DNA of 64,000 nucleotides from an uncultured Gemmatimonadales bacterium (GTDB taxonomy: Bacteria; Gemmatimonadota; Gemmatimonadetes; Longimicrobiales; RSA9). Positions 38,701 through 55,938 of this stretch are shown here, piece after piece. Made by a program: the position numbers and the translations under genes. The notes beneath the pieces are model-generated. The model saw only the letters and a list, made by a program, of their open reading frames with translations. It was not told the DNA's origin and searched no databases. The stretch is taken from the NCBI GenBank assembly GCA_963783305.1, contig CAWAMW010000011.1, positions 105,318-169,317 on the forward strand, written 5' to 3'. Position 1 is the stretch's first letter. Each line of letters begins with the position of its first letter.

Positions 38701-38956
38701 AACGCAGCGGCTCCGTCGCGACGCCGGGCTCGAGGTGAGCGACCGGATCGAGCTCTGGATCAGCGGCGACGAGGACGCGGTCACGGCCGCCCGGCTCCAC
38801 GCCGACTACATCACGGGCGAGACGCTCGCCACGACCCTGGAGGTCGCGGCGCCGCCGGAATCCGACGCGATCCATACCCGCGACGTGGAGCTGGACGACG
38901 TCGCGGCGTCCATCGCGCTGCGGCGATCCGGGGGTGGCGATGCCGCTGACGGCTGA
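35782..38956 (+). CDS. ileS: Isoleucyl-tRNA synthetase (type 2), frameshifted near 37826-37840
   Basis: FYEGPPTANG, GWDTHGLPVE, WTTTPWT, KMSKS in 35782-37914; DRWLLS and LSNWYIRR anticodon-binding domain continue in the +1 frame to 38956. Confidence 0.93.
37826..37840 (+). repeat. (CCGA)3.75 tetranucleotide repeat at the ileS frameshift
   Basis: ccgaccgaccgaccg. Confidence 0.85.
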
Positions 38957-39850: not shown

Positions 39851-40808
39851 CGCGCGGCGGCTGGAGGTGGACGAGGCCGCTGTCGGCGAGCGCCTCGACG
39901 CCCACGTAGCGGAGCGGGTACCGGAGCTCTCGCGGAGTCGCGTCGTGCAGCTCATCGGGGACGGCCGGATCCGCCTGAACGGCGCCGAAGCCCGGAAGAG
40001 CGCGCGGCTGGAGCCGGGGGACGTCATCAATGTTGAGATCCCGGACCCGGAGCCGAGCGAGGTCGAGGCGGAGGACATTCCGCTGGAGATCGTATTCGAG
40101 GACCGGGACCTGCTGGTGGTGAACAAGCCGAGCGGCCTGGTGGTTCACCCGGCACCCGGTCATCGGAGCGGGACCATGGTGAACGCGCTGCTGCACCACG
40201 TGGACGACCTGTCCGGCATCGGTGGCGTGAAGCGGCCCGGCATCGTGCACCGGTTGGACAAGGACACGTCCGGTCTGCTCATCGTGGCAAAGCACGACCG
40301 CGCCCACCGCAAGCTGTCCGCGGCGCTGAAGCGGCGCGACATCCACCGGATCTATCTCACCGTCTGCTGGGGCCACCTGGAGGAGGACCGGCTGAGCGTG
40401 GAGGCGCCGGTCGGCCGCTCGAACCGCAACCGGAAGCGGATGGCGGTCGTGGAGTCCGGACGCCGGGCGCTCACGCACTTCGAGCGGGTCCAGCGCTGGG
40501 TCGCCGCCGACCTGCTGCGCGCCCGCCTGGAGACGGGTCGCACGCACCAGATCCGCGTCCACCTCGCCCATATCGGCCACCCGGTCGTGGGCGACAAGCA
40601 GTACGCCGGCGGCGGCGCTCGCGGGATCAGCGGGACGGGACACCTCTGGGCGCGCGAGCTGGAGCGCCGGGTGCCAACCCACTTCCTCCACGCCCATCGC
40701 CTCGAGTTCGAGCACCCCAGGACGGGGCAGCCGATGGAGTTCGAAGCGCCGCTCCCTTCCACCCTGGCGGGGGCGGCCGAATGGGCGGCCGAGACGAGCG
40801 CGCGTTGA
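39843..40808 (+). CDS. rluD: RluA-family pseudouridine synthase (RluD-like)
   Basis: S4 domain, NKPSGLVVHP, HRLDKDTSG, GRTHQIRVH. Confidence 0.92.
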   Translation: MGSARRLEVDEAAVGERLDAHVAERVPELSRSRVVQLIGDGRIRLNGAEARKSARLEPGDVINVEIPDPEPSEVEAEDIPLEIVFEDRDLLVVNKPSGLVVHPAPGHRSGTMVNALLHHVDDLSGIGGVKRPGIVHRLDKDTSGLLIVAKHDRAHRKLSAALKRRDIHRIYLTVCWGHLEEDRLSVEAPVGRSNRNRKRMAVVESGRRALTHFERVQRWVAADLLRARLETGRTHQIRVHLAHIGHPVVGDKQYAGGGARGISGTGHLWARELERRVPTHFLHAHRLEFEHPRTGQPMEFEAPLPSTLAGAAEWAAETSAR

Positions 40809-40834
40809 CCCGTTCCCGTCCGTCGGGATATCTT
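40805..40834 (+). promoter_or_regulatory. Putative sigma70 promoter of the Mgl operon
   Basis: TTGACC-18 bp-TATCTT; same hexamers occur at 51769-51796. Confidence 0.5.
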
Positions 40835-40869: not shown

Positions 40870-43479
40870 ATGATCCAACGGCCCGAGGCCGTCACAGGCG
40901 CCGGACCCGAGGCCGGGGGCCGTCCCCGAGCGGCTCGTCGCTCGGCCATGTCCGAACGCGACGTGTCCATTCTCCGCTCGTTGGCCGACCGCATCGACCC
41001 CGGGGACGCTGGCGCCCACAACAACCTCGGAGTCCTCTTCTTTCAGAAGGGGCTCTTCGACGACGCGGTGGCCGCCTTCGAACGGGCGCTCGAGCTCGAT
41101 CCGCGACTGGAAGTGGCGCGCCAGAACGCCGAGATCGCGTTCAAGGAGAGCGGCCATTTCGAAGAGCGCGTGCGCTCGCTTCGCGAGGCTCTCCGCGCCG
41201 ACCCCGCCAGCGCCGACAGCCGCGACGCCCTCGCCCGCACCTACCTGATGGGCGGCGACCCCGCGAGTGCGGCGGCCGAGTGGACGGCGCTGCTCCGGCA
41301 GTACCCCCAGAGTACTCCGCTCCACATGAAGCTGGCGTACGCGGAAGCCGAACGCGGCCGCGTGCAGGTGGCGGTCCACCTGCTGGAGGAGGCCGCGCGC
41401 CTCTCCCCGGAGTTGGCCGCCGTCCGGCTCCAGCTCGCCGAGCTGATGCTGGACACCGGAATGCCCGTCCGGGCCGAGCGCGAGGTGCGGCGCGCCGTCG
41501 CACTGGATCCGATGGCGTCGCGGGCGCAGCAGTTCCTCGCTCGCCTGCTGGAGGAGACCGGCCGGACGGAGGAGGCCACGGAGGCGCTGGAGCGGGCGAA
41601 GGAGCTGGACCCGGCGGCGGGCAGCTCGACCGGGCATCTGTCCCTCGACCGGTACCGCTCCGCGGCGCGGGCAAAACGCAGGCGCGAGGGTCGGCCCGAG
41701 CCGGTGACAGAGGCGGGGCTCGGCGGTCTGGCACGCGCGACGGAGCTCCGCCGGAACGGCAACCTGCGGGGCGCCGCGGAGGAGCTGGAACGGGAGCTGA
41801 CGGCCGGCGACGCGTCGCTGGAGGTCCGGCAGGCGAGCGCCGAGATCCACCTTCTCATGGGCGACCTCGAGGCGGCGGCCGACGCCTACGGTGCTCTGGT
41901 GGCGGAACGGGAGGACAGCCCCAAGCTCTGGAATGAGCGCGGGGTCGCCGTTCACCGTCTCGCCCGGTTCGATGAGGCCGTGCACGCGTACCGCCGCACC
42001 GTTGCCCTCGACCACGCCTACTCCCTCGGCTGGAACAACCTGGGGGTGGCGCTGGCTCAGAGGGGGGAAGAGGGAGCGGCCGAGCGAGCGCTCCGACAGG
42101 CGACCGCGGGGACGGCGCCGCCCGAGATTCTGTGGAATCTGGGGTTGTTCCTCACCCGCTTGGAGCGTCCTGATGAGGCGGTGGAGACCTATCGGGAGGC
42201 GCTTGAGATCGACCGCTCCTCCGCCGAGTCGTGGGCACGCCTCGGGAGCGCTCTCTTCCAGGCACGAGAGCCGGCGGGCGCACGGGACGCGCTGCTCCAG
42301 GCGCTGGAGCGCGATCCGGATCTGGCGGACGCCCGCTATCAGTTGGGCTTCGCCCTCTCCGCCCTCGGAGACTTCCGCGGCGCGTTGAGGGAGACACAGC
42401 GCGCGCTGGAGCAGGCGCCCGTCATCCCTACCCCACAGTACCAGCTGCTCATCGACGCCCAGTTCGAGGACGGCACGCTCCCAGCGCCCGAGACTACCGA
42501 GGGGGAGCGGGTTCCATCCGGATCCCCCGTGGCCGGGTTCGATTTCGAACCGAAGTCTCTCGACAATGCCTTCGCCGGGTTCAGGCCCCGGGACCCCTCG
42601 CCGGGCACCGCGGAGATCCAGACGTTCGTCGACGAGGGCCGGACCGCGCTCCGCCGTGGCCAGCTCAGGAAGGCCGCGGCGGCGGCAAGCCGCGCGGTGC
42701 GGGCGGCGCCAGAGGCGCTGGATCCGCGGCTGATCGAGGGGGAGGTGCTCCTCCGACAGGGGCTGGCGGGCGAGGCGCTCGAGCGATTCGAGGGCGTGCT
42801 CAGGGGCGAGGCCGATACCCGGCAGGTGCGGGAGGCGCTCACCGGCCGCGCCCGTGCGCTCCTCGACCTGGGTCGAGCCAAGGACGCGATTGCGGCCGCG
42901 CGTGCGGTGGAGGACGCCGGGGGCGGGGGATCGTTCACGGCGCGGGCGCTCCTCGCCGCCGAGCGGTGGACGGACGCAGTGTCGGCGTTCGAGCGGGCGG
43001 TCCAGAACGGCGAAGTGGACGCTACCACCCTGGCAGGGTACGGCAGTGCGCTGCTCGGCGCAGGCCGACCGGCGGACGCGCGAAAAGTGTTTACCCGATC
43101 GCTGGCCACCAGCCCCTCCGTAGCCGCGCGGGTGGGTCTGGGGCAAGCTCTCGAGGCCCTGGGCGACCGCCCTGGCGCCATGAGGGCGTACCGGGAAGGA
43201 GTCACCGCGCTGCCGAGTTACGGCCCGGCCGTCCTGAGGCTCGCCATGGCGGAGTGGCGATCGGGGAAGGCCCAGGACGCCGTCCGATCACTGGTCCAGT
43301 TCCTCGACCTCGACCCGACGCACGTGGCCGCGCTGGTCCAGCTGGGCACCTGGCTCGGAGAGCTCGGACGGGTCGAGCAGGCGCTGCGGTCGCTCCATCG
43401 AGCGTTGAGCCTCGATGCGGGGAACGCAGAGGCGCGCCGGGAGCTCGAGCGCTTGAGCGCCGCCGGAAGGGGGGGCTGA
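40870..43479 (+). CDS. Large tetratricopeptide-repeat protein
   Basis: Many TPR units (AHNNLGVLF...AFERALELDP; WNNLGVAL; ARYQLGFAL); alternative start 40948. Confidence 0.9.
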   Translation: MIQRPEAVTGAGPEAGGRPRAARRSAMSERDVSILRSLADRIDPGDAGAHNNLGVLFFQKGLFDDAVAAFERALELDPRLEVARQNAEIAFKESGHFEERVRSLREALRADPASADSRDALARTYLMGGDPASAAAEWTALLRQYPQSTPLHMKLAYAEAERGRVQVAVHLLEEAARLSPELAAVRLQLAELMLDTGMPVRAEREVRRAVALDPMASRAQQFLARLLEETGRTEEATEALERAKELDPAAGSSTGHLSLDRYRSAARAKRRREGRPEPVTEAGLGGLARATELRRNGNLRGAAEELERELTAGDASLEVRQASAEIHLLMGDLEAAADAYGALVAEREDSPKLWNERGVAVHRLARFDEAVHAYRRTVALDHAYSLGWNNLGVALAQRGEEGAAERALRQATAGTAPPEILWNLGLFLTRLERPDEAVETYREALEIDRSSAESWARLGSALFQAREPAGARDALLQALERDPDLADARYQLGFALSALGDFRGALRETQRALEQAPVIPTPQYQLLIDAQFEDGTLPAPETTEGERVPSGSPVAGFDFEPKSLDNAFAGFRPRDPSPGTAEIQTFVDEGRTALRRGQLRKAAAAASRAVRAAPEALDPRLIEGEVLLRQGLAGEALERFEGVLRGEADTRQVREALTGRARALLDLGRAKDAIAAARAVEDAGGGGSFTARALLAAERWTDAVSAFERAVQNGEVDATTLAGYGSALLGAGRPADARKVFTRSLATSPSVAARVGLGQALEALGDRPGAMRAYREGVTALPSYGPAVLRLAMAEWRSGKAQDAVRSLVQFLDLDPTHVAALVQLGTWLGELGRVEQALRSLHRALSLDAGNAEARRELERLSAAGRGG

Positions 43480-44598
43480 GTGCCCATCGAGGGACCGCTG
43501 AAGGAGCTCGGGATCCAGGACGTGCTCCAGATGCTCGACCTGGCGCAGAAGACCGGCATCCTGACCGTGCGCTCGCAGCGCATGATGGATGAGGCGGTGG
43601 TCCATATGCTGGACGGTGAGCTCGTCTTCGCAAGCCGTCGTCGGTCCATGCGCCTTCTCGGTCAGCAGCTGCTCCGGGACGGGAAGCTGACGGAGAAGGA
43701 GCTCGAGCGGGCGCTCGAAATGCAGCGTCGCGACTCGAAGCAGCGGCTGGGAGCCATCCTCGTGGAGATGGGGAGCGTGGATCGGAGCGAGCTCGACCGG
43801 CAGCTCCGGTTCCAGATCGAGGAGACGATCTACGACCTGCTGGCGTGGGATGAGGGCTATTTCCATTTCGAGGAGACCGACGAGACGCCACCGGGACCCG
43901 TGCGGGTCCGGGTGGATTCGCTCCTGATGGAAGGCGCTCGCCGGATCGACGAGTGGACGCGGCTGGAATCGCGGGTCCCCAGCTCCGACGCCGTGCCCGT
44001 ACTCTTCGCGAAGGAAGGGGACAGCGGGCTCATCGACCTCCGCCCGGAGCAGTGGGAGGTGCTGGCGGAGATCGACGGAGAACGGGACCTCCGCCTGATC
44101 GCCAGCGAGCTGGGGCGGAGCGCGTTCGACGTGGCCAAGATCGTGTACGGGCTCGTGACCATGAACGTGGTCAGCGTCAGCGAGCGCCCGCTGAAGATCA
44201 AGGACGAGGCCCTGATCCCGATCCTCGACGAGCTGGAGCTCATGCTGGCCGATGGCGAGCTGGAGGCGGCCGAGCGGCGCGCAAGGGAGATCCAGAAGGA
44301 GTACCCCGATCGCGTCGAGCTGCCGCTCCTGACGGGCCGCGCCCTCGCCGCTCAGGGCCGGCTGAGGGCCGCCGCCGAATCCTTCGATCGGGCGGTGACC
44401 CTCGACCCGCTGTCCCCGGACGCCCATTATCAACTGGGACTCGCCGCAGCCAGAGCGGGCGAGATCGACCGCGCCATGGAGGCATGGTCCACTTTTCTAC
44501 GGCTGAACCTGGGCGGCGACCGACGCACGTTCGTCGAGGCCGCCTTCGATGCGATGACCGATCTGAAACACGCCCTCGACGCCGCGCCCACGGAATGA
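43480..44598 (+). CDS. DUF4388 domain + MshEN-like motif + TPR protein
   Basis: G.L....I.DVLQML....KTG.L, W.EG.F.F, LLMEGARRIDEW; C-terminal TPR. Confidence 0.8.
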   Translation: MPIEGPLKELGIQDVLQMLDLAQKTGILTVRSQRMMDEAVVHMLDGELVFASRRRSMRLLGQQLLRDGKLTEKELERALEMQRRDSKQRLGAILVEMGSVDRSELDRQLRFQIEETIYDLLAWDEGYFHFEETDETPPGPVRVRVDSLLMEGARRIDEWTRLESRVPSSDAVPVLFAKEGDSGLIDLRPEQWEVLAEIDGERDLRLIASELGRSAFDVAKIVYGLVTMNVVSVSERPLKIKDEALIPILDELELMLADGELEAAERRAREIQKEYPDRVELPLLTGRALAAQGRLRAAAESFDRAVTLDPLSPDAHYQLGLAAARAGEIDRAMEAWSTFLRLNLGGDRRTFVEAAFDAMTDLKHALDAAPTE

Positions 44599-45461
44599 CT
44601 GAACGCGATCTGCAGCGCTGGAGCAGGGAGGTGGCCGAGGACCCCGGCGCCCCCTCGTTCGTCCGCCTGGCCCGCGCGTGTCGCCGGCAGGGCCGGCACC
44701 AGGCCGCACGCGACATCGTGCACGGCGGCCTCACCCGGCATCCCGAGCACGTGGACGCACACGCGCTCCTCGCCCTCATCCATATCGATGGCGGCCAGCG
44801 TCAGCAGGCACGCGACGAGTGGGAGACCGTTCTCCGCCTCGATCCCGGGAACTTCGATGCCAGCCGCGGACTCGGGTTCCTGGCTCTCGAGCGCAACGAT
44901 CTGATCGCCGCCCGCCGTCACCTGGATGCCGCCGCCGCCGCGCGCCCCGATGACCCGGCGGTCTCTCAGGCGCGGCAGGTGCTCGATCGGCGGGAGGACG
45001 CCGCCGCTCCCTCCGACCTCCCGGGCGCGCGCGTCCACACCGGCGCCCGTGACCCCGCGCGCACCGGAGCCCGTGACCCCGCGCGCACCGGAGCCCGTGA
45101 CCCCGCGCGGCTCTTTACCGCCCTCGCCGCGGAGGCCCCCTTCAAGGGCGCCCTCGTGCTCGACGACCAGGGAATGGTCCTGGCCGGAGGACTGGACAGC
45201 GATGCCCTGTCCGATGACCTCCTCGGCGCGCTCCTCACTACCACGGTCGCGGAGGCCAGCCGAACGACCGGAATGCTTCAACTCGGCGATTGGAACGAAA
45301 TGCTGATCGAGACGGATTCGGCCACACTCCACCTTACCGCCCTCCCCGGCGCCGCGGTCCTGGTGGTCGTGGCGGAGCCGGACACGCCCGCCGGATGGGT
45401 GGTTCGGGCCGCCGGCAGGGCGGCGGAGATGGCCCGGCGCTTCATGGAGGTGGGGACATGA
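44595..45461 (+). CDS. TPR + Roadblock/LC7 fusion protein
   Basis: N-terminal TPR; C-terminal GALVLDDQGMVLA...LQLGDWNEMLIE Roadblock pattern; ATGA overlap start. Confidence 0.78.
   Translation: MTERDLQRWSREVAEDPGAPSFVRLARACRRQGRHQAARDIVHGGLTRHPEHVDAHALLALIHIDGGQRQQARDEWETVLRLDPGNFDASRGLGFLALERNDLIAARRHLDAAAAARPDDPAVSQARQVLDRREDAAAPSDLPGARVHTGARDPARTGARDPARTGARDPARLFTALAAEAPFKGALVLDDQGMVLAGGLDSDALSDDLLGALLTTTVAEASRTTGMLQLGDWNEMLIETDSATLHLTALPGAAVLVVVAEPDTPAGWVVRAAGRAAEMARRFMEVGT
45038..45109 (+). repeat. 24-bp coding tandem repeat, three copies (TGARDPAR)
   Basis: caccgg(c/a)gcccgtgaccccgcgcg x3. Confidence 0.95.
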
Positions 45462-45808
45462 ATGGAGCCGTAGAGCGGGCGCTGAGTACGCTGACCCGGA
45501 TCGATGGGGTGCGGGGTGCCATGGTAGTGGACAGAGAGGGAGGGGTGCCCGTCCTGGCGAAGCTGACCACCGGGGTGCCCGAGACGGCGCTGGCGGCCAT
45601 GTCGGGGCTGCTCTTCGGCCGGACCACGGAGGCTTCACAGTCGGCGGGATTCGGCCGACTGGGTGTGCTCCAGCTTCAGGCGGACGGGGGGCATATGGTC
45701 CTGGCGGGGGCGGGACCGCTCCTGGTCGTGGTTTTGACGGAGGCCGACGCGCGACTGGGTCTGGTGCGGGTCCAGGCGGCGCGGGCCGCGGGCGAGCTGA
45801 GCGAATGA
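45458..45808 (+). CDS. Roadblock/LC7 protein (MglB/MglC-like)
   Basis: GVRGAMVVDREGG...LAAM...ARLGLVR; ATGA overlap start. Confidence 0.82.
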   Translation: MNGAVERALSTLTRIDGVRGAMVVDREGGVPVLAKLTTGVPETALAAMSGLLFGRTTEASQSAGFGRLGVLQLQADGGHMVLAGAGPLLVVVLTEADARLGLVRVQAARAAGELSE

Positions 45809-46290
45809 GACGCGAAGATGTGAAGCGCGTGGCCGAAGCACTTGCCGAGCCGATGAAGACGTTCGTGCGGGACTCCCGTGTCCGAACGGCCGTGCTCGTC
45901 AACCGGAGTGGGCAGGTGCTGGCGCACCACGGGTTTGGTCAGAGCTACGACATCGGGAACGTGGCCACACTGGCGGCGGCTGCGCACTCCTCCGCGCACG
46001 CGCTGGCACAGCTCACCGGCGCTGGCCGCTGGATGCACCTCCATCACGCCGGCAAGGAGAACCAGCTCTTCCTGGCGCCCTTCGTCGCCGGCTCCGAGGA
46101 GCTGGTGCTGGTGGCCATCTTCGACAACGATTCCACGCTGGGCCTCGTCCAGCTCTTCTTCGACCGCCTCGCCGAGGCCATCCAGCAAATACCCGAGCTC
46201 GGGGGCGCCCTCGTGCCGGGCGATGTCGAGGCGTTCGAGAGTGATCTCGAGGCGGGGCTCGACCGACTGCTGCCCGAGAGCGGCGACTGA
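45805..46290 (+). CDS. mglB: Roadblock/LC7 protein MglB
   Basis: AVLVNRSGQVLA, ATLAAA, IFDNDSTLGLVQL; directly upstream of mglA. Confidence 0.8.
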   Translation: MRREDVKRVAEALAEPMKTFVRDSRVRTAVLVNRSGQVLAHHGFGQSYDIGNVATLAAAAHSSAHALAQLTGAGRWMHLHHAGKENQLFLAPFVAGSEELVLVAIFDNDSTLGLVQLFFDRLAEAIQQIPELGGALVPGDVEAFESDLEAGLDRLLPESGD

Positions 46291-46892
46291 TGCCCGTGGT
46301 CCAGTACTCTTCTCGGGAGATCCTGTGCAAGATCGTGTACTACGGTCCGGCCAGGAGCGGCAAGACCACCAACCTGCAGTGGGTCCACCGTTCACTCCCC
46401 GATGGGCGGAGCAGTGAAATGGTCTCCCTGGCCACCGAGAACGATCGCACCCTCTTCTTCGACTTCCTGCCCCTCGACCTGGGCGAGATCTCGGGCTTCC
46501 GCACACGGCTCCAACTCTACACCGTCCCCGGCCAGGTCTACTACAACGCTACACGTCGGCTGGTACTGAGGGGCGCCGATGGCGTCGTCTTCGTGGCGGA
46601 CTCGGAGCCACGGCGCCGGCGAGACAACATGGAGAGCCTGCGCAACCTCCAGGAGAACCTGCTGGAGAACGACTTCGACATCCGGGAGCTTCCGCTGGTC
46701 CTCCAGTACAACAAGCAGGACCTGGAGGGGGCCCGGCCGAAGTCCGAGATGGACGACGAGCTGAACTTTCGCGACGTCCCGTCGCACGGGGCGTCCGCCG
46801 TCCAGGGTGTGGGGGTCATTCCCACGCTGCGCTCGGTGAGCGAGATGGTGCTCCACAGCGTATCACGGCGCTTCGCCTCGCCCACGGCCTGA
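46290..46892 (+). CDS. mglA: Ras-like small GTPase MglA
   Basis: KIVYYGPARSGKTTN, DRTLFFDFLP, YTVPGQ, DGVVFVADS, NKQD. Confidence 0.95.
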   Translation: MPVVQYSSREILCKIVYYGPARSGKTTNLQWVHRSLPDGRSSEMVSLATENDRTLFFDFLPLDLGEISGFRTRLQLYTVPGQVYYNATRRLVLRGADGVVFVADSEPRRRRDNMESLRNLQENLLENDFDIRELPLVLQYNKQDLEGARPKSEMDDELNFRDVPSHGASAVQGVGVIPTLRSVSEMVLHSVSRRFASPTA

Positions 46893-46899
46893 CCGCAGC

Positions 46900-48723
46900 A
46901 TGCCCCTAGACCTGGATCCGCGCTTCACCTTCGACTCCTTCGTGGTCGGCCCCGCCAACCGTCTGGCGGTGGCCGCCGCCCGCCGCGTCTCGGACGCACC
47001 CGGCACCACGTACAACCCGCTCTTCATCTACAGCGGGTCGGGGCTCGGGAAGACCCATCTCCTCGGCGCCATCGGTCACCAGATCGAGAGGGTCCATGGG
47101 ATGAAGGTGGTCTCTGACACGATGGAGCACCTCATGGAGGCCATCAGCGCAGCCGTCGAAGCCGGAGAGCGCGACGCCTTCCGGGGGGCGCTCCGGGAGG
47201 CGGGGCTCCTGCTCCTCGACGATGTACAGTTCCTGGCCGGTCAGCGGCAGATCCAGGAAGAGCTGCTCCGCATCTGGGATGCGCTGGCAGCCCGCGGCAC
47301 ACAGGTGGTTCTCACCAGCGATCGCCAACCGCAGGAGATCGACGGAATCGATGACCGCCTCCTGAGCCGGCTCTCCGGCGGCCTCATTGTCGACATCAGC
47401 GCCCCCGACTACGAGACGCGGGTCGCCATCGCCCGGCGAAAGGCCGAAGAGCGCGGGAGCATCCTGGCCCAGGGAGTGTTTCAGTCGCTGGCGCGGATCG
47501 CGTTCACGAACGTGCGGGAGCTCCAGGGTGCGCTGAACCGCATCATCGCCGTGCAGGAGCTCGAGGGCAGGGAAGTCACGCCCGACGACGTGCCGGAGCT
47601 CCTGGGATCCGCCGCCGACCGCGGACGGGACGAGTTCGGCGAGTTCCTCTCCGACATCACCGGCTCGGTGGACGACGTGGTGCAGCGGGCCGACCGCTAC
47701 ATCGCGGACGCCATCCTGGCGTGGGAAGGAGAATCCTACCGCACCCGGCGACTCGACAGCGCTCTCACCGGCCATGTCACCGGGGCGGAGGCGCAGGAGG
47801 TGGTGCGGCGGTTCGAGCAGGACATCGTTCGGCTCCGGGAGATCGAGAACGAGATACGGCAGCTGGACCCGGCAGCCCGGGAGCTCGAGAGTTCCGTGTT
47901 GCGGGACCCCGACCGCGTGGCCGAAGCCGAATCGCTCCTCAGCACCGTCCGTGAGCGCCAGTCACCGCCCCCCGCTCCCCCCGAGGGTCTCGCCCTGGGC
48001 GAGCTGGATGGCGCGGAGACGCTCGCAGTTCGCGCGGCCCTGTCGGTCGCCGACCAGCCGGGCAGCGCGTTCAACCCGCTGTACGTGCTCGGGCCGGCCG
48101 GCTCCGGGCGCTCGACCCTGCTGATCGCCCTGGCCAATGCCCTCGTGGGACGGGGGTTGACGGTGGCGTACATGGACGGCGCCACGTTTGCCGAGGAGCT
48201 GATTGACGCGCTGGAACGGAGCCGCCTCGAGGCATGGCGCGCCCGGCTCAGGGGAGCCGACGTGCTGGTCCTCGACGACCTGCACGAGCTGGCCGGCCTG
48301 GAGCGCGGGTACGAAGAGCTCTTTCACCTCATCGACGGGCTCCACCGGGAGGGCCGCCAGCTGGTGTTCTCCGCCAACGTGCCGCCGCAGGCGCTGCCGT
48401 TCCCATCACGTTTGCAGAGCCGCCTCGAGGCCGGGCTCGTCGTGGAGCTCCAGCCGCCGACCCAACGGCAGGCGCCGACCCCGGACGCGGTGTACGCCGG
48501 ATCCCCGGAACCCGCGGTGGGGGCGGTGGACGGCATGGGGGCGGCTGAGCCGGGTTCCCAGAAGGCCGCGGACCGGCCGGACGCGACGGCAACGAGCGAG
48601 ACCGCGCCTGCCGGCGAACAGGGCCGCTCGGCAAGACACGCCGCGCACTGGATTCTCAGCCGCGAAAAGGTCCTGTGGGAATGGCCCTACTCACAGGACT
48701 GGATCGAGGAGGACCCGGACTGA
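46900..48723 (+). CDS. Tandem DnaA/Hda-like AAA+ protein lacking DnaA domains I and IV
   Basis: Domain 1: FTFDSFVVG, YNPLFIY.GSGLGKTHL, LLLDDVQF, NVRELQGAL. Domain 2: FNPLYVLGPAGSGRST, LVLDDL, RLQSRL. Confidence 0.88.
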   Translation: MPLDLDPRFTFDSFVVGPANRLAVAAARRVSDAPGTTYNPLFIYSGSGLGKTHLLGAIGHQIERVHGMKVVSDTMEHLMEAISAAVEAGERDAFRGALREAGLLLLDDVQFLAGQRQIQEELLRIWDALAARGTQVVLTSDRQPQEIDGIDDRLLSRLSGGLIVDISAPDYETRVAIARRKAEERGSILAQGVFQSLARIAFTNVRELQGALNRIIAVQELEGREVTPDDVPELLGSAADRGRDEFGEFLSDITGSVDDVVQRADRYIADAILAWEGESYRTRRLDSALTGHVTGAEAQEVVRRFEQDIVRLREIENEIRQLDPAARELESSVLRDPDRVAEAESLLSTVRERQSPPPAPPEGLALGELDGAETLAVRAALSVADQPGSAFNPLYVLGPAGSGRSTLLIALANALVGRGLTVAYMDGATFAEELIDALERSRLEAWRARLRGADVLVLDDLHELAGLERGYEELFHLIDGLHREGRQLVFSANVPPQALPFPSRLQSRLEAGLVVELQPPTQRQAPTPDAVYAGSPEPAVGAVDGMGAAEPGSQKAADRPDATATSETAPAGEQGRSARHAAHWILSREKVLWEWPYSQDWIEEDPD

Positions 48724-50342
48724 TGGCGATCAAGGGCAGTCTCCGCGAGGCGGGGCTGGCGGACGTGTGCCAGCTCCTCTCCATGGGCCAGAAGACGGGG
48801 CGGCTATCGGTCACCGACGGCTCTCGCTTCGGACAGATCTATTTCGACCGCGGCCGCATCAATTTCGCCACCATCGTGAACCGGCGCGACCGACTCGGCG
48901 ACCTCCTGGTGCGCGACGGGGCCGTGCGGCACGACCAGCTCATGGAAGCGGTGGACGCGCAGGCGGAGCGGCCCGACCGGCGCCTGGGCGAGATCCTGCT
49001 CGAGCGCGGCCTCATCGACAGCGCCACCCTCACGGCCTCGATCGAGCGGCAGATCGAGGAGGCCATCTACTACCTGTTCACCTGGAAGCAGGGCAGCTTC
49101 TACTTCGAGCCGGGGAAGGCGCCGGAGAGCGGTGAGATCCTGATCCGCGTGAATCCGGAGAACCTGCTGCTCGAGGGCGCTCGCCGAGTCGATGAGTGGG
49201 GCGTGATCGAGAAGAAGGTCCCCTCCATGAACCTCATCTTCGGCCTGGACCGTGAGCGCATGGAGGATGCGGACGTGCAGTTGACGCCGAGTCAGCGCGC
49301 CCTCGTGCCGCTGATCGATGGCGACCGTACGGTGGAGGACCTGGCAGAGGAATCTGGGCTCGGGGAGTTCGCCACGGGAAAGGCCCTCTACGGGCTGATC
49401 CAGGCCGGCTTCGCGTTCCGCGTGGGCCGCCGGGCCGGCGCGGAGCCGGTGGAGGCCGGGGATGTGGACGAGGCTCGAAACCTGGGCGCCGCGTTCTACG
49501 AGACGGCGATGCTCGATGACGCCGAGCGCGAGTTCCGCCGGGCGCTGCGGAGTCGCCCGCACGACGTCACCGCCCGGCACTTCATGGCGCTCATCGCGCT
49601 GCGGAAAGGTGAGGCCGCCGAGGCGATCCGGCGCCTCTCCGCCCTCCTCGAGGACGCCGGACCACGGACCGGCGTGTTCCTGAACCTGGCCTTCGCACTC
49701 CGACTCGAGCGTCGGTACTCCGATGCACTCCGCGTCCTCGACGCGGCTCAGAAGTCCGCGCCGAACGATCCGCGGGTCCGGCTCGCGCGGGGCGCGACCC
49801 TGCTCTTCGCGGGCGAGATCGCCGCCGCCGCCGAAGCGCTCGACGAGTACCGCACCATGCTCCACCCCGACACGCTCCCGCCCGCGCCCTACTACTACTG
49901 CGTCGGGCTCGCCGCCACCGTGGCCGGCCGCATGGAGGACGCCGACGCTCTCCTCGATGAGGCGCTCGGGGCCCATCCCGCATCGCCGCCGCTCCACCTC
50001 CTGGCCGGGAACCTGGCGGAGAGGCGGGCCGATATGGCGGCGGCCGAGCGCTCCTACCAGCAGGCCGCCGAAGAGGACCCGGCGCTCGCACAGGCGCATC
50101 GAAATCTCGGCGACCTGGCAAGCCGGCGGGGCGTGGACCGAGAGGCCCTCGAGCACTATCGCCGGGCCGCCGAAGTGGACGCCTCGCTGGGGGACGAGCT
50201 CTACATGCGGCTCGCCGACCTGCACTACCGCCACAACGCCCGGGAGGAGGCGATCCGCTGCTGGAGGCGTGCCCTGGAGCTGAACCCCGGGAACCAGGTG
50301 GCTCGGAACCACCTCGAGCTGGTGGCCCGTGCCGCCCGCTGA
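48723..50342 (+). CDS. DUF4388 domain + MshEN-like motif + TPR protein
   Basis: IKGSL....LADVCQLL....KTG.L, WKQGSFYF, LLLEGARRVDEW; long TPR tail; TGATG coupling. Confidence 0.82.
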   Translation: MAIKGSLREAGLADVCQLLSMGQKTGRLSVTDGSRFGQIYFDRGRINFATIVNRRDRLGDLLVRDGAVRHDQLMEAVDAQAERPDRRLGEILLERGLIDSATLTASIERQIEEAIYYLFTWKQGSFYFEPGKAPESGEILIRVNPENLLLEGARRVDEWGVIEKKVPSMNLIFGLDRERMEDADVQLTPSQRALVPLIDGDRTVEDLAEESGLGEFATGKALYGLIQAGFAFRVGRRAGAEPVEAGDVDEARNLGAAFYETAMLDDAEREFRRALRSRPHDVTARHFMALIALRKGEAAEAIRRLSALLEDAGPRTGVFLNLAFALRLERRYSDALRVLDAAQKSAPNDPRVRLARGATLLFAGEIAAAAEALDEYRTMLHPDTLPPAPYYYCVGLAATVAGRMEDADALLDEALGAHPASPPLHLLAGNLAERRADMAAAERSYQQAAEEDPALAQAHRNLGDLASRRGVDREALEHYRRAAEVDASLGDELYMRLADLHYRHNAREEAIRCWRRALELNPGNQVARNHLELVARAAR

Positions 50343-50757
50343 CAAGAGCGGCTCGGGCCGGCCCAGGGAGGGCCCGCAGAACGAACGGGCCCGCGCCCTC
50401 GTGTGGAGGAGCGGAGATGCCCTCCTGGCCGTTCCTCTGGCCGCGGTGCTGGAGATCGCCGCCCCCGACGCCGACGGGCGCGTTCGGAGCCGCGTCGGGT
50501 CCCTCCCTGTCAGCACGGTCCCCGGATTGCCGCCGGCCGCGAACCCACCCCGCGCGGTCGTGATACGGGCGGGAGGCGCCACCGTGGCTCTCGCCGCGGA
50601 TGATGTGGAAGGGGTTCGCGAGTACACCGCGCGCGAGAGTGCCCGCACACCGCCCTGGCTCCGGCTGCTCAACATTGACCATCTCGCGGGTCTGGTGAGG
50701 CTCGACGAGGGTCGTGTCGCCGCCCTGCTCGCCGTCGAAACCCTGCACCCGTCGTGA
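50329..50757 (+). CDS. CheW-like domain protein
   Basis: LAVPLAAVLEI, VALAADDVEGV, LAGLVRL...ALL.VE.L pattern. Confidence 0.65.
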   Translation: MPPADKSGSGRPREGPQNERARALVWRSGDALLAVPLAAVLEIAAPDADGRVRSRVGSLPVSTVPGLPPAANPPRAVVIRAGGATVALAADDVEGVREYTARESARTPPWLRLLNIDHLAGLVRLDEGRVAALLAVETLHPS

Positions 50758-51785
50758 ATCCGCCGCGACGCGGTCGTTGCGCCAACCGGCGGCTCGTTCC
50801 CGCCGCGCTGCTGCTCACCGCCTTCTGTGCCCTCGCGACCTCCTTCGCCCCTGTGTCCGCCCAGGATGCGGTCCGGGCCGGAGAAGTGACGCTCCACTTC
50901 TGGCCACAGCAGCGGGCGCTCGCGACGCAGATCGTTACGCGGATGGCGGAGCAGCTTCCGCTCCCCGCACTGCCCGATTCGGTCCTCGTCGGCGGCACCG
51001 TCGACGTGTACCTGGCCTATGATGCAGCGCGGTGGGACAGCCTTACCGGCGGTGCGGCACCGGAGTGGGGCGCGGGTGTCGCCGACCCGGCCGCGGGTCT
51101 CATCGTCCTCCCGACCTTCGACTGGGAGCGCACCCCGCCGCACACGATCTACCGCACGCTCCGGCACGAGCTCGCCCACGTGGCGCTCCAGCGCTACCTC
51201 GGCGAGGCCAGAATCCCGCGGTGGTTCAGCGAGGGGTACGCGCAGTGGGCGGCGGGGGAGTGGCGCTGGGAATCCGCATGGCAGCTGCGGATGGCCTTCG
51301 TCCGCAGCGACTCGCCGCCCCTCGACTCCCTGACCCTCCACTGGCCCGTCGCGGAGACCGACGCTCGCCTGGCGTACCTGCTGTCTGCCAGCGCCGTGGC
51401 CTACCTGGTGGAGCGAAGCGGTGAGCGGGGCATTCGCATCCTGCTGGAGCAGTGGCGGGAGGATGTCGACTTCGATGCCGCCTTCCGCTCCGTCTACGGC
51501 CTCACGATCGGCCAGTTCGAGGAAGACTGGCGGGCGTACGTGAAGCGCACCTACGGCTGGACCGTCGTCCTCGGCCACTCCCTCTTCTTCTGGGTGATCG
51601 CCGCCGTCCTTCTGCTGGTCCTCTTCTTCATTCGACGACGACGCGACCGCGCCCGACTCGACACGCTCAGGGCCACCGAGCCCCCGGACGATCCCGCCTA
51701 CTGGGAGATCGACTTCGACCCGCCGCTTCCGCCCCGCCCCGGCGAACCCGCGCCGCCGGGTCCGCACGTTGACCCGGGCGGATGA
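50754..51785 (+). CDS. Peptidase MA-like (gluzincin) metallopeptidase, membrane anchored
   Basis: Signal peptide, HELAH...PRWFSEG, C-terminal TM helix followed by RRRR. Confidence 0.82.
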   Translation: MNPPRRGRCANRRLVPAALLLTAFCALATSFAPVSAQDAVRAGEVTLHFWPQQRALATQIVTRMAEQLPLPALPDSVLVGGTVDVYLAYDAARWDSLTGGAAPEWGAGVADPAAGLIVLPTFDWERTPPHTIYRTLRHELAHVALQRYLGEARIPRWFSEGYAQWAAGEWRWESAWQLRMAFVRSDSPPLDSLTLHWPVAETDARLAYLLSASAVAYLVERSGERGIRILLEQWREDVDFDAAFRSVYGLTIGQFEEDWRAYVKRTYGWTVVLGHSLFFWVIAAVLLLVLFFIRRRRDRARLDTLRATEPPDDPAYWEIDFDPPLPPRPGEPAPPGPHVDPGG

Positions 51786-51796
51786 TCGGCTATCTT
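51769..51796 (+). promoter_or_regulatory. Putative sigma70 promoter, probably giving a leaderless mRNA
   Basis: TTGACC-16 bp-TATCTT, 6 nt before ATG 51803, no SD sequence. Confidence 0.55.
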
Positions 51797-51802
51797 TCCC
51801 CC

Positions 51803-52003
51803 ATGATTCAACAGAAAACGCACGTACAGAAGCACCTCCCCCCGTCTCTCAAGTGGACCTCGGTCAACTACGGTCTCATGGGAGCGGGGCTGCTGTCCCT
51901 GGTCGGGGGGTTCTTCCTGCTGGCGAACGCCTCGACCGTGGCCGCGCCCCTGCTGCTGGCCCTCGGATACGTGGTGCTGATCCCACTCGGGATCGTCCGG
52001 TAG
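51803..52003 (+). CDS. Small two-TM membrane protein (DUF3098-like)
   Basis: NYGLMGAGLL...APLLLALGYVVLIP. Confidence 0.6.
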   Translation: MIQQKTHVQKHLPPSLKWTSVNYGLMGAGLLSLVGGFFLLANASTVAAPLLLALGYVVLIPLGIVR

Positions 52004-52018
52004 ACACAACCCGGTTTC

Positions 52019-52093
52019 GGGCGCGTAGCTCAGCTGGTCCAGAGCGCCTGCTTTACACGCAGGATGTCGGGGGTTCGAATCCCTCCGCGCCCA
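52019..52093 (+). tRNA. tRNA-Val (TAC); CCA not encoded
   Basis: GGGCGCG/CGCGCCC acceptor stem, CCTGC-ttTACac-GCAGG, TTCGAAT. Confidence 0.96.
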
Positions 52094-52124
52094 CTTCTCC
52101 CTCCACCCTGACACTCAGGCGACC

Positions 52125-52517: not shown

Positions 52518-52679
52518 GGGGCTGAGCCATACCCCCTGCGGAGGGGACCACCCGTCACCCGGGGCAGGGGTCTCACCGACGCCCGGATGGGGGTTTTCCC
52601 CCCTTGTTGTGCGTCATGGCTCGTGCGAGGTTTCCCCCGTCGCAAGGAACGACTCGGACGGGCGGGGAAAAGGGAAATA

Positions 52680-53792
52680 ATGGCGACGAACGAGGCCAGG
52701 GCGTCGGGTGGAACCGGAATCGTGCTGCTGAACCTCGGCGGTCCGGAGACCGTCGAGGATGTCGGGCCGTTCCTCCTGGAGCTGTTCGCGGACCGCGAGA
52801 TCATCCAGCTCCCCTTCCAGGGTTTCCTCGGACCGTTCATCGCGAAGCGGCGGACGAAGGGGGTCCAGGAGCTGTACGAGGGGATCGGCGGCGGCTCTCC
52901 CATCCTGCACTGGACGCGACTTCAGGGTGAGGGGATGGTGGAGCGGCTGGATCGGCTGAGCCCGGATACGGCCCCTCACCGGTTCTACGTCGCGTTCCGC
53001 TACGTCCAGCCCACGAGCGAGGACGCGCTGCGGCAGATGAAGGCCGACGGGGTGGAGCGGGCGGTGGCGTTCACGCAGTACCAGCAGTTCTCCTGCGCGA
53101 CCACGGGCTCCAGCCTGAACGAGCTCTGGCGCGCCGCCGCTCGCGTCGGAATGGCGGAGGACTTCACCTGGAGCGTGATCGACCGCTGGCCCACCCACCC
53201 CGGCTTCATCCAGGCCATGGCCAAGAAGGTCCGGGAAGGGTTGGAGCAGTTCCCCGAAGAGGAGCGTGACGACGTCCTCCTCCTCTTCAGCGCGCATTCG
53301 CTGCCGCTCTCGGTGATCGAGCGCGGGGACCCGTACCCGCAGGAAGTGGGTGCGAGTGTTCACGAGGTCATGAAGGCCGGCGGCTTCGATAACCAGTTCA
53401 TCCTCTGCTATCAGTCAGAGGTGGGGCCCGTGCGCTGGCAGGGGGCCAGCACTGAGCAGGTGATCAAGGACCTGGGCGCCCGGGGCACGAAGAACGTGCT
53501 CGTGGTGGGGATCGCGTTCACCAGCGACCACATCGAGACCCTGAGCGAGATCGACATCGAGTACGCGGAGCTGGCGCACGAAGTGGGAATCGAGCGCTTC
53601 GAGCGGGCGCCGTCGCTGAATGGCGATGAGGACTTCCAGGACGCACTGGCCGATATCGTCCTGAGACACCTCCAGAGCGGCGAGGCGTGCAGTCGACAGT
53701 ACGGGCTGAGGTGCCCCGGCTGCGAGAACCCGCAGTGCCGGAACATCCTGAATCCCGTCGCACCCTACGACAGGACGCCGCTGAAGGCCTGA
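52680..53792 (+). CDS. hemH: Ferrochelatase, animal/myxobacterial [2Fe-2S] type
   Basis: LLNLGGP, GGGSPI, FSAHSLP, FTSDHIETL; SCATTGSS and C-terminal CPGCENPQC. Confidence 0.95.
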   Translation: MATNEARASGGTGIVLLNLGGPETVEDVGPFLLELFADREIIQLPFQGFLGPFIAKRRTKGVQELYEGIGGGSPILHWTRLQGEGMVERLDRLSPDTAPHRFYVAFRYVQPTSEDALRQMKADGVERAVAFTQYQQFSCATTGSSLNELWRAAARVGMAEDFTWSVIDRWPTHPGFIQAMAKKVREGLEQFPEEERDDVLLLFSAHSLPLSVIERGDPYPQEVGASVHEVMKAGGFDNQFILCYQSEVGPVRWQGASTEQVIKDLGARGTKNVLVVGIAFTSDHIETLSEIDIEYAELAHEVGIERFERAPSLNGDEDFQDALADIVLRHLQSGEACSRQYGLRCPGCENPQCRNILNPVAPYDRTPLKA

Positions 53793-53801
53793 GGAGAACC
53801 C

Positions 53802-54641
53802 GTGCAATCTACGCTCGCGATCCTGAACGGCTTTCTCCCACTGGGCTACCTGCTGGGTCTCGTGGCGTATCTCGGAGTGTTCGTGGAGCGCACGGGCCGG
53901 ATGGAGCGCGTGGCCACCCCGCTGGCGTGGGGGGTCGTGGTAATCCACGGCGCTTACCTGGTCCTCGGTGCCCTGGCGTTCGGCCATGTCCCCACCGCCA
54001 ACACGTGGGAGAGCCTGACGTTCATTGCGTTCTGTCTGGCGCTCGTCTACCTGGTGCTCGAGTGGCGCCAGGGGGAGCGTTCCACGGGGGTGTTCCTGCT
54101 TTCCGTCTCACTCCTGCTCCAGACGCTGTCCAGCGCCTTCATCAGCCACACCCGTGATGTGCCGGACATCCTGCGCTCGCCCATGTTCGGCGTGCACGTG
54201 ACGGCTGCCCTCATGGGCTATGTCGCGCTCGCCGTCTCGGCCGTCTACGGCGTCATGTACCTGATCCAGTACCGGCAGCTCAAGAAGCAGAAGGTGGGAT
54301 TGCTCTTCCAGCGACTGCCGAACCTCGAAACGTTGTCGCGGCTGAACATCGGCGCCCTCGCGTTCGGATGGCTCGGACTCACGGTGGCGATCCTGGCCGG
54401 AGCGACGTGGGCCACCACGCTGGAGGTGCAGGGGCGGATCGAGGGGAATTTCCTGACCGACCCCAAGTTCCTCCTGACCGTGGCTCTATGGCTGCTCTAC
54501 GGGATCTGCCTCGGCGGACGCTACGTGTTCCGGTGGGCGAACCGCACGCTCGCTACCGCATCGATCCTGGGGTTCGCTCTCATGCTCACGTCCTCGCTGA
54601 TGGTCGCGCTCGCCCTGCGCACCTTCCACGACTTCAGTTAG
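53802..54641 (+). CDS. CcsA/HemX-family cytochrome c assembly membrane protein
   Basis: About eight TM helices, HV..AL.GY, LPNLETL, DPK; upstream of hemA. Confidence 0.85.
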   Translation: MQSTLAILNGFLPLGYLLGLVAYLGVFVERTGRMERVATPLAWGVVVIHGAYLVLGALAFGHVPTANTWESLTFIAFCLALVYLVLEWRQGERSTGVFLLSVSLLLQTLSSAFISHTRDVPDILRSPMFGVHVTAALMGYVALAVSAVYGVMYLIQYRQLKKQKVGLLFQRLPNLETLSRLNIGALAFGWLGLTVAILAGATWATTLEVQGRIEGNFLTDPKFLLTVALWLLYGICLGGRYVFRWANRTLATASILGFALMLTSSLMVALALRTFHDFS

Positions 54642-54645
54642 CGTC

Positions 54646-55938
54646 ATGGAGCTAATCGTCCTCGGGTCCAGTCACCACACGGCGCCGGCCGACATCCGGG
54701 ACCGCGTTCAGATGACCGCGGGCGAGGTGGAGGTGTTCTGCGGTCGGCTGAGGAAGGAGCGGGACCAGATCCTGGAGCTGGGCGTCCTCTCGACCTGCAA
54801 CCGCACGGAGATCTATTCGCTGGTCTCCAGCCAGGAGACCGCCGACCCGCTGATTCGCCGCGCCATCGAGGAGCTGAAGGGCGTTCCCCACATGGGGAAC
54901 GGGAAGTACACGTACCTGCTCCAGGGCCGCGACATGGTCCGGCACCTTTTCCGGGTGGCGTCGGGCGTCGATTCGCTGATGGTGGGCGAGCCCCACATCC
55001 TCGGCCAGGTCCGCGATGCCTTCAAGCTCGCCGATCACACGCGCGCCACCGGCGCGATCCTCACGCGGCTCTTCAATTCGGCGCTGCACGTGGGCAAGAG
55101 GGCGCGGACGGAGACGGAGATCGGCGCCGGAACCGTGAGCGTGGCGTACGCCGCGGTGGAGATGGCGCTGAAGGTCTTCGACGGGCTTGAGAAGCACACG
55201 GTGGCGGTGATCGGCGCGGGAGAGACGGGAGAGCTCGTCGCCACGCACATGGCCGCGCAGAACGCCAGGCGGATCCTGGTGCTCAACCGCACCATGGAGC
55301 GAGCCGAGGCCGTCGCCGCGGCAGTAGGCGGGGAGGCGCGACCCCTCGAGTCGCTGGCCGACGTGATCGCCGAGGCCGACGTGGTGGTGACTGCCACAGG
55401 GTCGCCGGAGCCGCTGATCTGGAGCGACCAGCTGGAGTCCATCGCCCGGAAGCGGCGGGGACGGCCGCTGGTGGTCGTGGACATCTCCAACCCGCGGAAC
55501 GTGGACCCGGCGGTGGGGAAGATCGACAACGTCTTCCTCTACGACCTGGACGCGCTGGAGGAGATCGCCGACCAGAACCGGGCCCGGCGGGCGCGTGAGA
55601 TCCCGAGGGTCGAGGCGATCGTGGACGAAGAGGTGACCGCCTTCTTCGACTGGTACGACGCCCTGCACGTGGTCCCGGTGCTGAGGGCGCTACGGGACCA
55701 GTTTCACGACGTCGGGCGCGCGGAGGTGGAACGACAGAAAGGGCTCAGCCGGGAAGAGCGCGAGGCGCTCCAGGCGTACACGCGCGGGCTGATCAACAAG
55801 CTCCTCCACGAACCGACCACCCGGATCAAGGGCGTGGACGCGTTGACGGGCAGTGGCATGCGCAAGCTGGTCGCCATCCAGGAGCTGTTCGAGCTGGAGA
55901 TCGATCGCTACACCGATTCGAAAGAGGGCGGGGAATGA
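54646..55938 (+). CDS. hemA: Glutamyl-tRNA reductase
   Basis: STCNRTEIY, HLFRVASGVDS, GEPHILGQ, GAGE. Confidence 0.96.
   Translation: MELIVLGSSHHTAPADIRDRVQMTAGEVEVFCGRLRKERDQILELGVLSTCNRTEIYSLVSSQETADPLIRRAIEELKGVPHMGNGKYTYLLQGRDMVRHLFRVASGVDSLMVGEPHILGQVRDAFKLADHTRATGAILTRLFNSALHVGKRARTETEIGAGTVSVAYAAVEMALKVFDGLEKHTVAVIGAGETGELVATHMAAQNARRILVLNRTMERAEAVAAAVGGEARPLESLADVIAEADVVVTATGSPEPLIWSDQLESIARKRRGRPLVVVDISNPRNVDPAVGKIDNVFLYDLDALEEIADQNRARRAREIPRVEAIVDEEVTAFFDWYDALHVVPVLRALRDQFHDVGRAEVERQKGLSREEREALQAYTRGLINKLLHEPTTRIKGVDALTGSGMRKLVAIQELFELEIDRYTDSKEGGE

Follow-up and report, generated by a model that had tools for sequence, protein, structure and literature searches.

A conserved MglA, Roadblock and PATAN operon of the Gemmatimonadota in which a DnaA-derived ATPase carries a tail predicted to dock on a PATAN-TPR protein

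The ten genes considered here, named g1 to g10, lie in a 64,000-nt stretch of DNA (the window) from an uncultured bacterium of the phylum Gemmatimonadota, corresponding to positions 105318–169317 of contig C11 in the genome labelled G000. Below, G-numbers denote genomes, C-numbers contigs of G000 and L-numbers loci fetched from relatives. The cluster is a real, phylum-wide, uncharacterised variant of the MglA/Roadblock/PATAN theme, found in the window without chemosensory input. What is new in it is the C-terminal tail of g7, which outlives both ATPase domains of its own protein as well as the MglA, beside g8.

All ten open reading frames (ORFs) are on the + strand where a preliminary description of the window had placed them, and domain searches bear out the order it gave, from tetratricopeptide repeat (TPR) protein to zinc peptidase. 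The first gene, g1 (40870..43479), encodes an all-TPR scaffold of 869 aa without a transmembrane segment. With a gap of 0 (43479/43480) it is followed by g2 (43480..44598; 372 aa), in which a PATAN domain with an MshEN insertion precedes TPRs; PATAN is the domain listed as DUF4388 (10.1101/2021.06.11.447907). ATGA overlaps at 44595, 45458 and 45805 join g2/g3, g3/g4 and g4/g5. The domain searches assign TPR plus Roadblock/LC7 to g3 (44595..45461; 288 aa) and a stand-alone Roadblock/LC7 to g4 (45458..45808; 116 aa), while g5 (45805..46290; 161 aa) is an MglB-like Roadblock and presumed GTPase-activating protein (GAP). A TGATG junction at 46290 leads from g5 into g6 (46290..46892; 200 aa), a group-1 MglA paralog by motifs and alignment, and 7 nt separate g6 from the start of g7 at 46900. 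The product of g7 (46900..48723; 607 aa) consists of two DnaA domain-III modules and a helical linker, and a second TGATG at 48723 joins it to g8 (48723..50342; 539 aa), which combines PATAN, an MshEN insertion (residues 57–110) and a TPR superhelix (residues ~245–538). The last two genes are g9 (50329..50757), a degenerate CheW whose 14-nt overlap with g8 is absent from the preliminary description, and g10 (50754..51785; 343 aa; GTGA junction with g9 at 50754), a membrane-anchored zinc peptidase of the HExxH type (Peptidase_MA_2) that carries HELAH at residue 138 and hydrophobic segments near residue 14 and at 269–296. In g3, the linker between TPR and Roadblock (~45040–45110) contains three tandem 24-nt copies that encode a repeated 8-residue unit.

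The promoter hexamers reported earlier are present as a sigma-70-type promoter-like site on the + strand, TTGACC-N18-TATCTT (40805..40834), which overlaps the rluA stop. The window contains two promoter-like sites, compared with 0.4 ± 0.6 in shuffled sequence. The second has the same hexamers with N16 spacing (51769–51796), overlaps the g10 stop and is followed by a hydrophobic ORF of ~66 codons and tRNA-Val (51805–52094). A site at the rluA stop recurs in 5 of the 25 distinct sequences in which this junction is visible (the window, L031, L049, L050 and L046; L083 was left out as a duplicate of L031). Judged by their sequence, the ten genes form a real and conserved operon, with co-transcription predicted from the gene layout.

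Gene order in relatives and loss of the chemosensory flanks

The gene order is conserved in relatives, for which a survey had been proposed. Forty loci from several families were taken around the best MglA matches, with longer contigs chosen, and g1–g8 are contiguous in 32 of them (counting L031, where only the tail remnant of g7 is left). The pair cheA-cheC lies upstream in 32 of the 40 loci, and in three the sequence ends before this can be judged. Downstream, 32 of the 40 have cheR, cheD or cheB. The full order by Pfam is cheW, cheY, cheA, cheC, g1–g8, cheR, cheD, cheB, cheW, cheW, TPR, g10, in which the first four genes follow the order of difC-D-E-G. No chemoreceptor (MCP) was found among the flank proteins scanned in these loci. 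Two loci have an additional AAA_22 ATPase gene between cheB and cheW (L063, 15161–15958; L065, 14638–15717).

In relatives that contain the che genes, rluA is directly ahead of cheW wherever the junction is visible. In the window rluA is instead followed directly by g1, and the same arrangement is seen in L031, L049, L050, L084 and L109. CheC is found in none of the seven genomes of the window's genus (72–96% complete), whereas 16 of the 18 from elsewhere in the family have it. The two CheAs that G000 does encode share 35–40% identity with a cluster CheA, and a small tree without other outgroups places them outside a set of 14 cluster CheAs (support 100/99). The ten-gene operon is a trimmed form of a larger chemosensory cluster, and the window's genus has lost the che genes. 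In L046, a relative with che genes, the promoter-like site at the rluA stop stands ahead of cheW, which fits a deletion behind a retained promoter. The reading of g9 as a CheW remnant follows from its weak and partial match (33 bits, residues 66–139 only) and from L031, L049, L104 and L106, which show no match and have little or no room for one. The distinct architecture claimed in the preliminary description thus holds as a conserved operon, while the larger chemosensory cluster of which it is the remainder had been overlooked.

A match to g8 is present in 109 of 151 genomes of the phylum (hereafter carriers) and lacking in 42. Scanning genome contigs with g8 returned eight loci, seven titled Gemmatimonadota and one from an uncultured bacterium. 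The cluster is common to most Gemmatimonadota and in most relatives is bracketed by chemotaxis-type genes. Some of its parts are dispensable, in that all three Roadblocks are absent in L046, L067, L068, L069 and L100.

The tail of g7 and its partner g8

The g7 protein is readily mistaken for DnaA. It contains two Bac_DnaA stretches (6.9e-84), passes the TIGR00362 DnaA cut-off when both stretches are summed (384.9 versus 343.9) and is often named accordingly, an annotation trap also apparent among its close homologs, several of which come from Longimicrobiales and several of which are called DnaA in public sets. The structure model (pLDDT 86, pTM 0.48) has two AAA+ modules and a helical linker, with domain III of B. 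subtilis DnaA as the best structural match (root mean square deviation 1.5 A, 42% identity) and a TM score of 0.95 to 8bv3 over the target. Like DnaA and Hda it thus has the initiator-clade AAA+ fold, and module 1, which is 46% identical to the DnaA of G000, retains Walker A/B, sensor I, arginine finger and sensor II (K51 38/38, D107 38/38, R157 34/38, R206 31/36 rows). Unlike them it has two modules in tandem, a helical linker and a peptide tail, and neither domain I nor the DNA-binding domain IV: among the DnaA Pfam models only Bac_DnaA matches, and in the alignment with the DnaA of G000, a complete 460-aa protein encoded on contig C2, both ends of DnaA are unmatched. Module 2 is less well preserved. 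Its arginine finger is present in 28 of 32 rows, while Walker A is intact in 7 of 14 rows from the window's own family compared with 17 of 18 others; the window copy is degenerate (K404R) and lidless, and five relatives have no module 2. G003 has no full-length g7. The g7 of L060 and L061 is divided between two frames, and the ORF immediately ahead of g8 retains the tail. An ESM Atlas search with the linker gave no usable match.

The tail itself (residues 584–607; 48649..48720, + strand) is conserved, particularly at E589 (50/56), K590 (49/56), W595 (55/56), P596 (49/56) and E604 (49/56). A profile of it finds one copy in 106 of the 151 phylum genomes; all 106 are among the 109 carriers of g8, and none is among the other 42 (the two genome lists were compared by eye, and the ten coordinate pairs checked in this way all abut). 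More telling than this co-occurrence are the deletion patterns. In seven genomes from four genera and two families (L031, L067, L096–L099 and L102) both AAA+ modules are gone and the tail is kept with g8, the tail of L099 having been recognised by eye under the profile threshold. There g7 is replaced by mini-proteins of ~60–100 residues that have no ATPase and retain the tail; six of the seven also keep a conserved EFxxF-type helix of the linker (residues ~244–254 of g7; 47629..47661, + strand). Tail and g8 also persist without the cluster MglA (L091, L096, L097, L102), without g1–g2 (L067, L091, L096, L097) and, in the window, without che genes. In G032 and G034 g7 and g8 are together on a different contig from g1–g6, having moved away jointly. 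Among library matches (150 of 304 examined), the tail motif lies no more than 6 residues from the C-terminus in 145 of 150. Of the 63 long ones 55 match the body of g7, and four short ones are further helix-plus-tail mini-proteins. A single record (P0213, 195 aa), possibly a misassembly, has a PATAN-MshEN N-terminus of the g8 type fused directly to the g7 tail.

Since the tail is encoded immediately ahead of g8, conservation merely as the g8 ribosome-binding site was considered and rejected. The codons of the tail proline are split 18/18, and the motif is kept in four loci with 22–48 nt between the genes, so the constraint acts on the tail protein. The terminal Glu-Glu codons of g7 may nevertheless double as a ribosome-binding site.

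Docking of the tail into the TPR groove of g8 is supported by a model of the complex. The tail is placed in the groove formed by residues 259–493 with an ipSAE of 0.86, compared with 0.02 for the best of three controls. Of 157 solved complexes 116 pass the mark applied to this score, as do 2 of 215 mismatched pairs. At least 94% of contacts are shared between runs, and partner pLDDT is 69 or higher. The modelling used author-made alignments from which L060 and L067 were left out. Within the predicted interface N321, Q457, N461 and D464 of g8 are 86–95% conserved. When polar residues only are considered, conservation at the interface (0.59) is not significantly above that in the rest of the TPR region (0.51; p 0.07). 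The short forms of g8 that stand beside mini-proteins delete residues 55–107 and 483/489–539 and leave the predicted groove almost entirely in place. A Foldseek search with the g8 model returned TPR proteins only, with no solved-structure match for the PATAN fold.

GTPase, Roadblock and PATAN proteins

The MglA encoded by g6 keeps the group-1 motifs DRTLFFD, TVPGQ and NKQD, in agreement with the preliminary description, and aligns without gaps to 5ymx and 6hjh. Arg53 (the finger) and Gln82, the two catalytic residues of MglA (PMC3199381), are both present, and g6 is apparently an active GTPase. G000 holds a second MglA on contig C16, after dnaX-recR-mglB, which scores 290 bits against Myxococcus MglA versus 228 bits for g6. 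By bit score, g6 is a second paralog and not the closest ortholog of Myxococcus MglA, and a Myxococcus-like mglBA lies elsewhere in the genome. A signature of the cluster copy is Arg at position 22, found in 51 of 51 cluster MglAs matched by a P-loop pattern and in none of 12 other MglA loci. At the adjoining position, Gly21, which is equivalent to Gly12 of Ras, has given way to Ala in the window as well as in eight other loci (L031, L036, L047, L049, L084 and L104–L106), and is kept in the other cluster copies shown. Substitution of MglA Gly21 by Val blocks GAP-stimulated hydrolysis. The P-loop pattern misses five divergent cluster MglAs (L092–L095, L107), in which the Arg53 and Gln82 motifs are gone. 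All five are from one genus, where the MglA has decayed to 33–38% identity while g1–g5, g7 and g8 stay, and may be pseudo-GTPases. In families f4 and f5 (L077–L080) the canonical MglA has an insertion of ~33 residues near the C-terminus.

Robl_LC7 is matched by g3, together with TPR, and by g4 and g5. The g5 protein also matches solved MglB (E 2e-11) and is under the NCBIfam MglB equivalog cut-off (47.9 versus 200). For g4 and the Roadblock of g3 no match to MglC was found to E 1 among Protein Data Bank (PDB) sequences, only generic Roadblocks.

Both g2 and g8 match DUF4388 (1.3e-31 and 1.6e-36) and exceed the cut-off of 38 for the c-di-GMP motif NF053729, with 41.5 and 46.4 bits, respectively. 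In g8 both tandem RLGxxL..LxxxLxxQ motifs, as defined for MshEN in PMC5013675, are retained, with a spacer of 6 rather than 5 residues, and the best PDB match of this region is MshE (5htl). The Arg of the first motif is present in 52 of 56 rows and the other four are deletions; four g8 copies, all beside mini-proteins, have no MshEN insertion. In g2 the corresponding Arg is Leu in the window and Arg in 19 of 40 rows, despite the score over cut-off. G000 has 14 GGDEF matches, and the MshEN insertion of g8 probably binds c-di-GMP. A third PATAN-MshEN paralog of 860–980 aa, 46–49% identical to the N-terminus of g8, is encoded outside the cluster in Gemmatimonadales (L085, L086, L088, L089).

With regard to the earlier claims about these proteins, the group-1 assignment of g6 holds, and the protein is a paralog rather than the closest Myxococcus ortholog. 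GTP, ATP and c-di-GMP switches are plausible from Arg53 and Gln82 of the GTPase, the intact first AAA+ site and the intact MshEN of g8; the first MshEN motif of g2 has lost its Arg.

Two features lie outside the operon. Downstream (52587–56882) are genes of heme biosynthesis: ferrochelatase, cytochrome c assembly protein, glutamyl-tRNA reductase and porphobilinogen deaminase. Upstream, ileS (35782–38956) is split into two overlapping frames with a break near 37820, probably an assembly error, because the frame is continuous in four relatives and a base at 37818 is absent from one contig of run X1. The same run, which may be that of the source sample, has DNA contigs that span portions of the operon and differ little from it.

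Proposed role, rival readings and known systems

The cluster most likely encodes a hub by which a surface machine is positioned or switched, with type IVa pili as the favoured target; the probability of this reading is put at roughly 55%. It is based on precedent. PATAN on its own binds both PilB1 and PilC in Synechocystis (10.1101/2021.06.11.447907), and MglA-GTP acts on pili via the TPR protein SgmX (PMC7519303). By analogy, g8 would be the output protein, its PATAN domain engaging the PilB/PilC motor as in cyanobacteria, its MshEN domain binding c-di-GMP and its TPR groove holding the g7 tail, the last step being suggested by the deletion patterns and the model. The g7 protein, a DNA-free derivative of DnaA domain III, would oligomerise with ATP via module 1 and so cluster g8. 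Because mini-proteins without ATPase replace g7 in some lineages, it would tune rather than create the output. The MglA paralog, MglB, the two further Roadblocks and the TPR proteins g1–g3 would form a GTP switch setting the place and time of g8 action. Most relatives have this core bracketed by a chemosensory pathway without a receptor (CheW, CheY, CheA, CheC; CheR, CheD, CheB and two CheWs).

Pilus proteins are available in G000, where PilB, two PilT and PilM are over cut-off, along with three further PilB/GspE-like ATPases (only one of the four passes the PilB cut-off). FlhA is found in only 29 of 109 carriers, making flagella unlikely as a general target; pili are compatible with these distributions and not singled out by them. 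Several observations weigh against the pilus hub. The loci examined showed no pilus gene. The co-occurrence of PilM does not discriminate, since 37 of 42 non-carriers have it as well as 105 of 109 carriers. The three other PilB/GspE-like ATPases could be PATAN targets, and the canonical mglBA elsewhere in the genome could serve the pili. No single input is essential, because MshEN, MglA, Roadblocks, ATPase modules and che genes are each lost somewhere. The ATPase, GTPase and c-di-GMP-binding activities are predicted from motifs only. With respect to the tail, adjacent genes co-occur through linkage alone. The complex model had unrelated proteins as controls, with neither other peptides nor the g1 and g2 TPR regions among them. 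Solved structures include many TPR-peptide complexes, so that generic likeness may have raised the score. Finally, conservation at the predicted interface does not significantly exceed that of the remaining TPR residues (0.57 versus 0.56, p 0.28).

The strongest competing explanation, though an unlikely one, is a pathway like the Dif system of Myxococcus, controlling exopolysaccharide, biofilm matrix and attachment, with pili as its input and not its target. The flank set of CheW, CheY, CheA, CheC, CheD and CheR is that of the Geobacter Dif-like cluster (PMC2577667), and c-di-GMP sensing of the MshEN type (PMC5013675) fits biofilm control. However, Dif-like clusters carry a 44H chemoreceptor (PMC2577667), whereas here no receptor gene is found in the cluster, rluA being directly ahead of cheW where visible, and a block of eight Mgl, PATAN and ATPase genes is inserted. 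No polysaccharide gene was seen in the loci, the precedents for PATAN and MglA favour the pilus motor, and the core persists in the window's genus without these che genes save the CheW remnant.

Less probable still is a different type IV-filament machine (type II secretion, Tad-like or MSHA-like) as the target, placed by the hub to serve secretion, adhesion or contact-dependent behaviour. This possibility is raised by the four PilB/GspE-like ATPases, of which only one reaches the PilB cut-off, and by the AAA_22 gene of L063 and L065, whose closest match in G000 is on C14, ~5 kb from a PilB/GspE-like ATPase. That gene is present in only 2 of 60 loci, however, and the PATAN targets shown experimentally are PilB1 and PilC (10.1101/2021.06.11.447907).

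A further step down in probability, g7 might act as Hda does, co-polymerising with DnaA or inactivating it and thereby tying polarity to replication initiation. The identity of module 1 to the DnaA of G000, its superposition on B. subtilis domain III and the conserved arginine fingers of both modules are what such a role would call for. In opposition, g7 has neither domain I nor domain IV, both ATPase modules are deleted in seven genomes where the tail stays, G003 has no full-length copy, the neighbours are che, PATAN and Roadblock genes rather than replication genes, and in 42 of 151 phylum genomes no g8 match is seen. Coupling to the cell cycle, which the preliminary description had entertained beside polarity and pilus motility, is unsupported given the missing domains, the full dnaA on C2 and these ATPase losses; polarity or pili are the part of that proposal retained here as the best guess. 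Control of flagellar swimming is the least credible output, since despite flagellin and FlhA in G000, 80 of 109 carriers show no FlhA, ten FlhA genomes lack the module and another che cluster lies beside the flagellar genes on G000 contig C7.

Returning to the pilus hub, a fuller scenario can be offered tentatively. A duplicated, DNA-blind ATPase domain of DnaA may have been co-opted into surface signalling as a polymeric scaffold switched by ATP. By its peptide it would clip into a c-di-GMP-sensing PATAN-TPR protein and cluster it on the pilus motor under the control of an Arg22 MglA paralog, and more than once the ATPase would have been cut down to a docking peptide of 60–100 residues.

The closest functional parallel is the Myxococcus xanthus system of MglA/MglB, SgmX and Frz (PMC3199381, PMC7519303), which shares a group-1 MglA with Arg53 and Gln82, an adjoining MglB-like Roadblock, TPR proteins and, in most relatives, chemosensory input. 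Unlike there, all parts are in one operon with three Roadblock domains, the cluster MglA is the Arg22 paralog while the closer ortholog sits behind dnaX-recR, and PATAN-MshEN-TPR proteins and a tandem DnaA-type ATPase are present; the che system of the relatives differs in having CheC, CheD and a CheA without receiver domain. Two ideas about Myxococcus were discarded: binding of a C-terminal FrzS peptide to the SgmX TPR is wrong according to PMC9811614, and no support was found in the accessible literature for MshEN or PATAN in SgmX or SopA. With the cyanobacterial PatA-type proteins PixE and PixG (10.1101/2021.06.11.447907) the cluster shares PATAN carrying an alpha-helical insert, chemosensory genes alongside and a proposed pilus output, whereas here PATAN is fused to TPRs and not to a receiver domain (there is no Response_reg match), and the insertion of g8 retains the full c-di-GMP motif. 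Actinobacterial conservons consist of the CvnA histidine kinase, CvnC and a group-2 MglA (PMC4316618); in contrast, the operon has no kinase.

The preliminary description regarded the system as undescribed. A limited literature search turned up no description of the cluster as a whole, of the tandem DnaA-like protein or of the g7 tail. The neighbourhoods of MglA, MglB and PATAN genes, however, are not new. They are reportedly treated by Makarova in 2006, as cited in PMC4316618. Group-1 MglA genes near PATAN genes are in print (Wuichet and Sogaard-Andersen, PMC4316618), and supplement file 3 of that paper gives GAU_1409 of Gemmatimonas aurantiaca as 'PATAN>MglA>-PATAN>', the layout of the Roadblock-less form in L046, L068, L069 and L100. 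In the accessible portion of the paper the intervening gene, che flanks, TPR and MshEN parts and function are unnamed.

Little is known about the surface behaviour of Gemmatimonadota, which are common in soil. The cluster is present in 109 of the 151 genomes sampled, where natural deletions reveal which of its parts depend on which. For g7, a component without described function, there is now a concrete predicted contact to g8. If the contact between tail and groove is true, it would be the first direct link inside the system, made between a peptide of 25 residues and a single TPR domain, and a domain of the replication initiator would have been reused for signalling.

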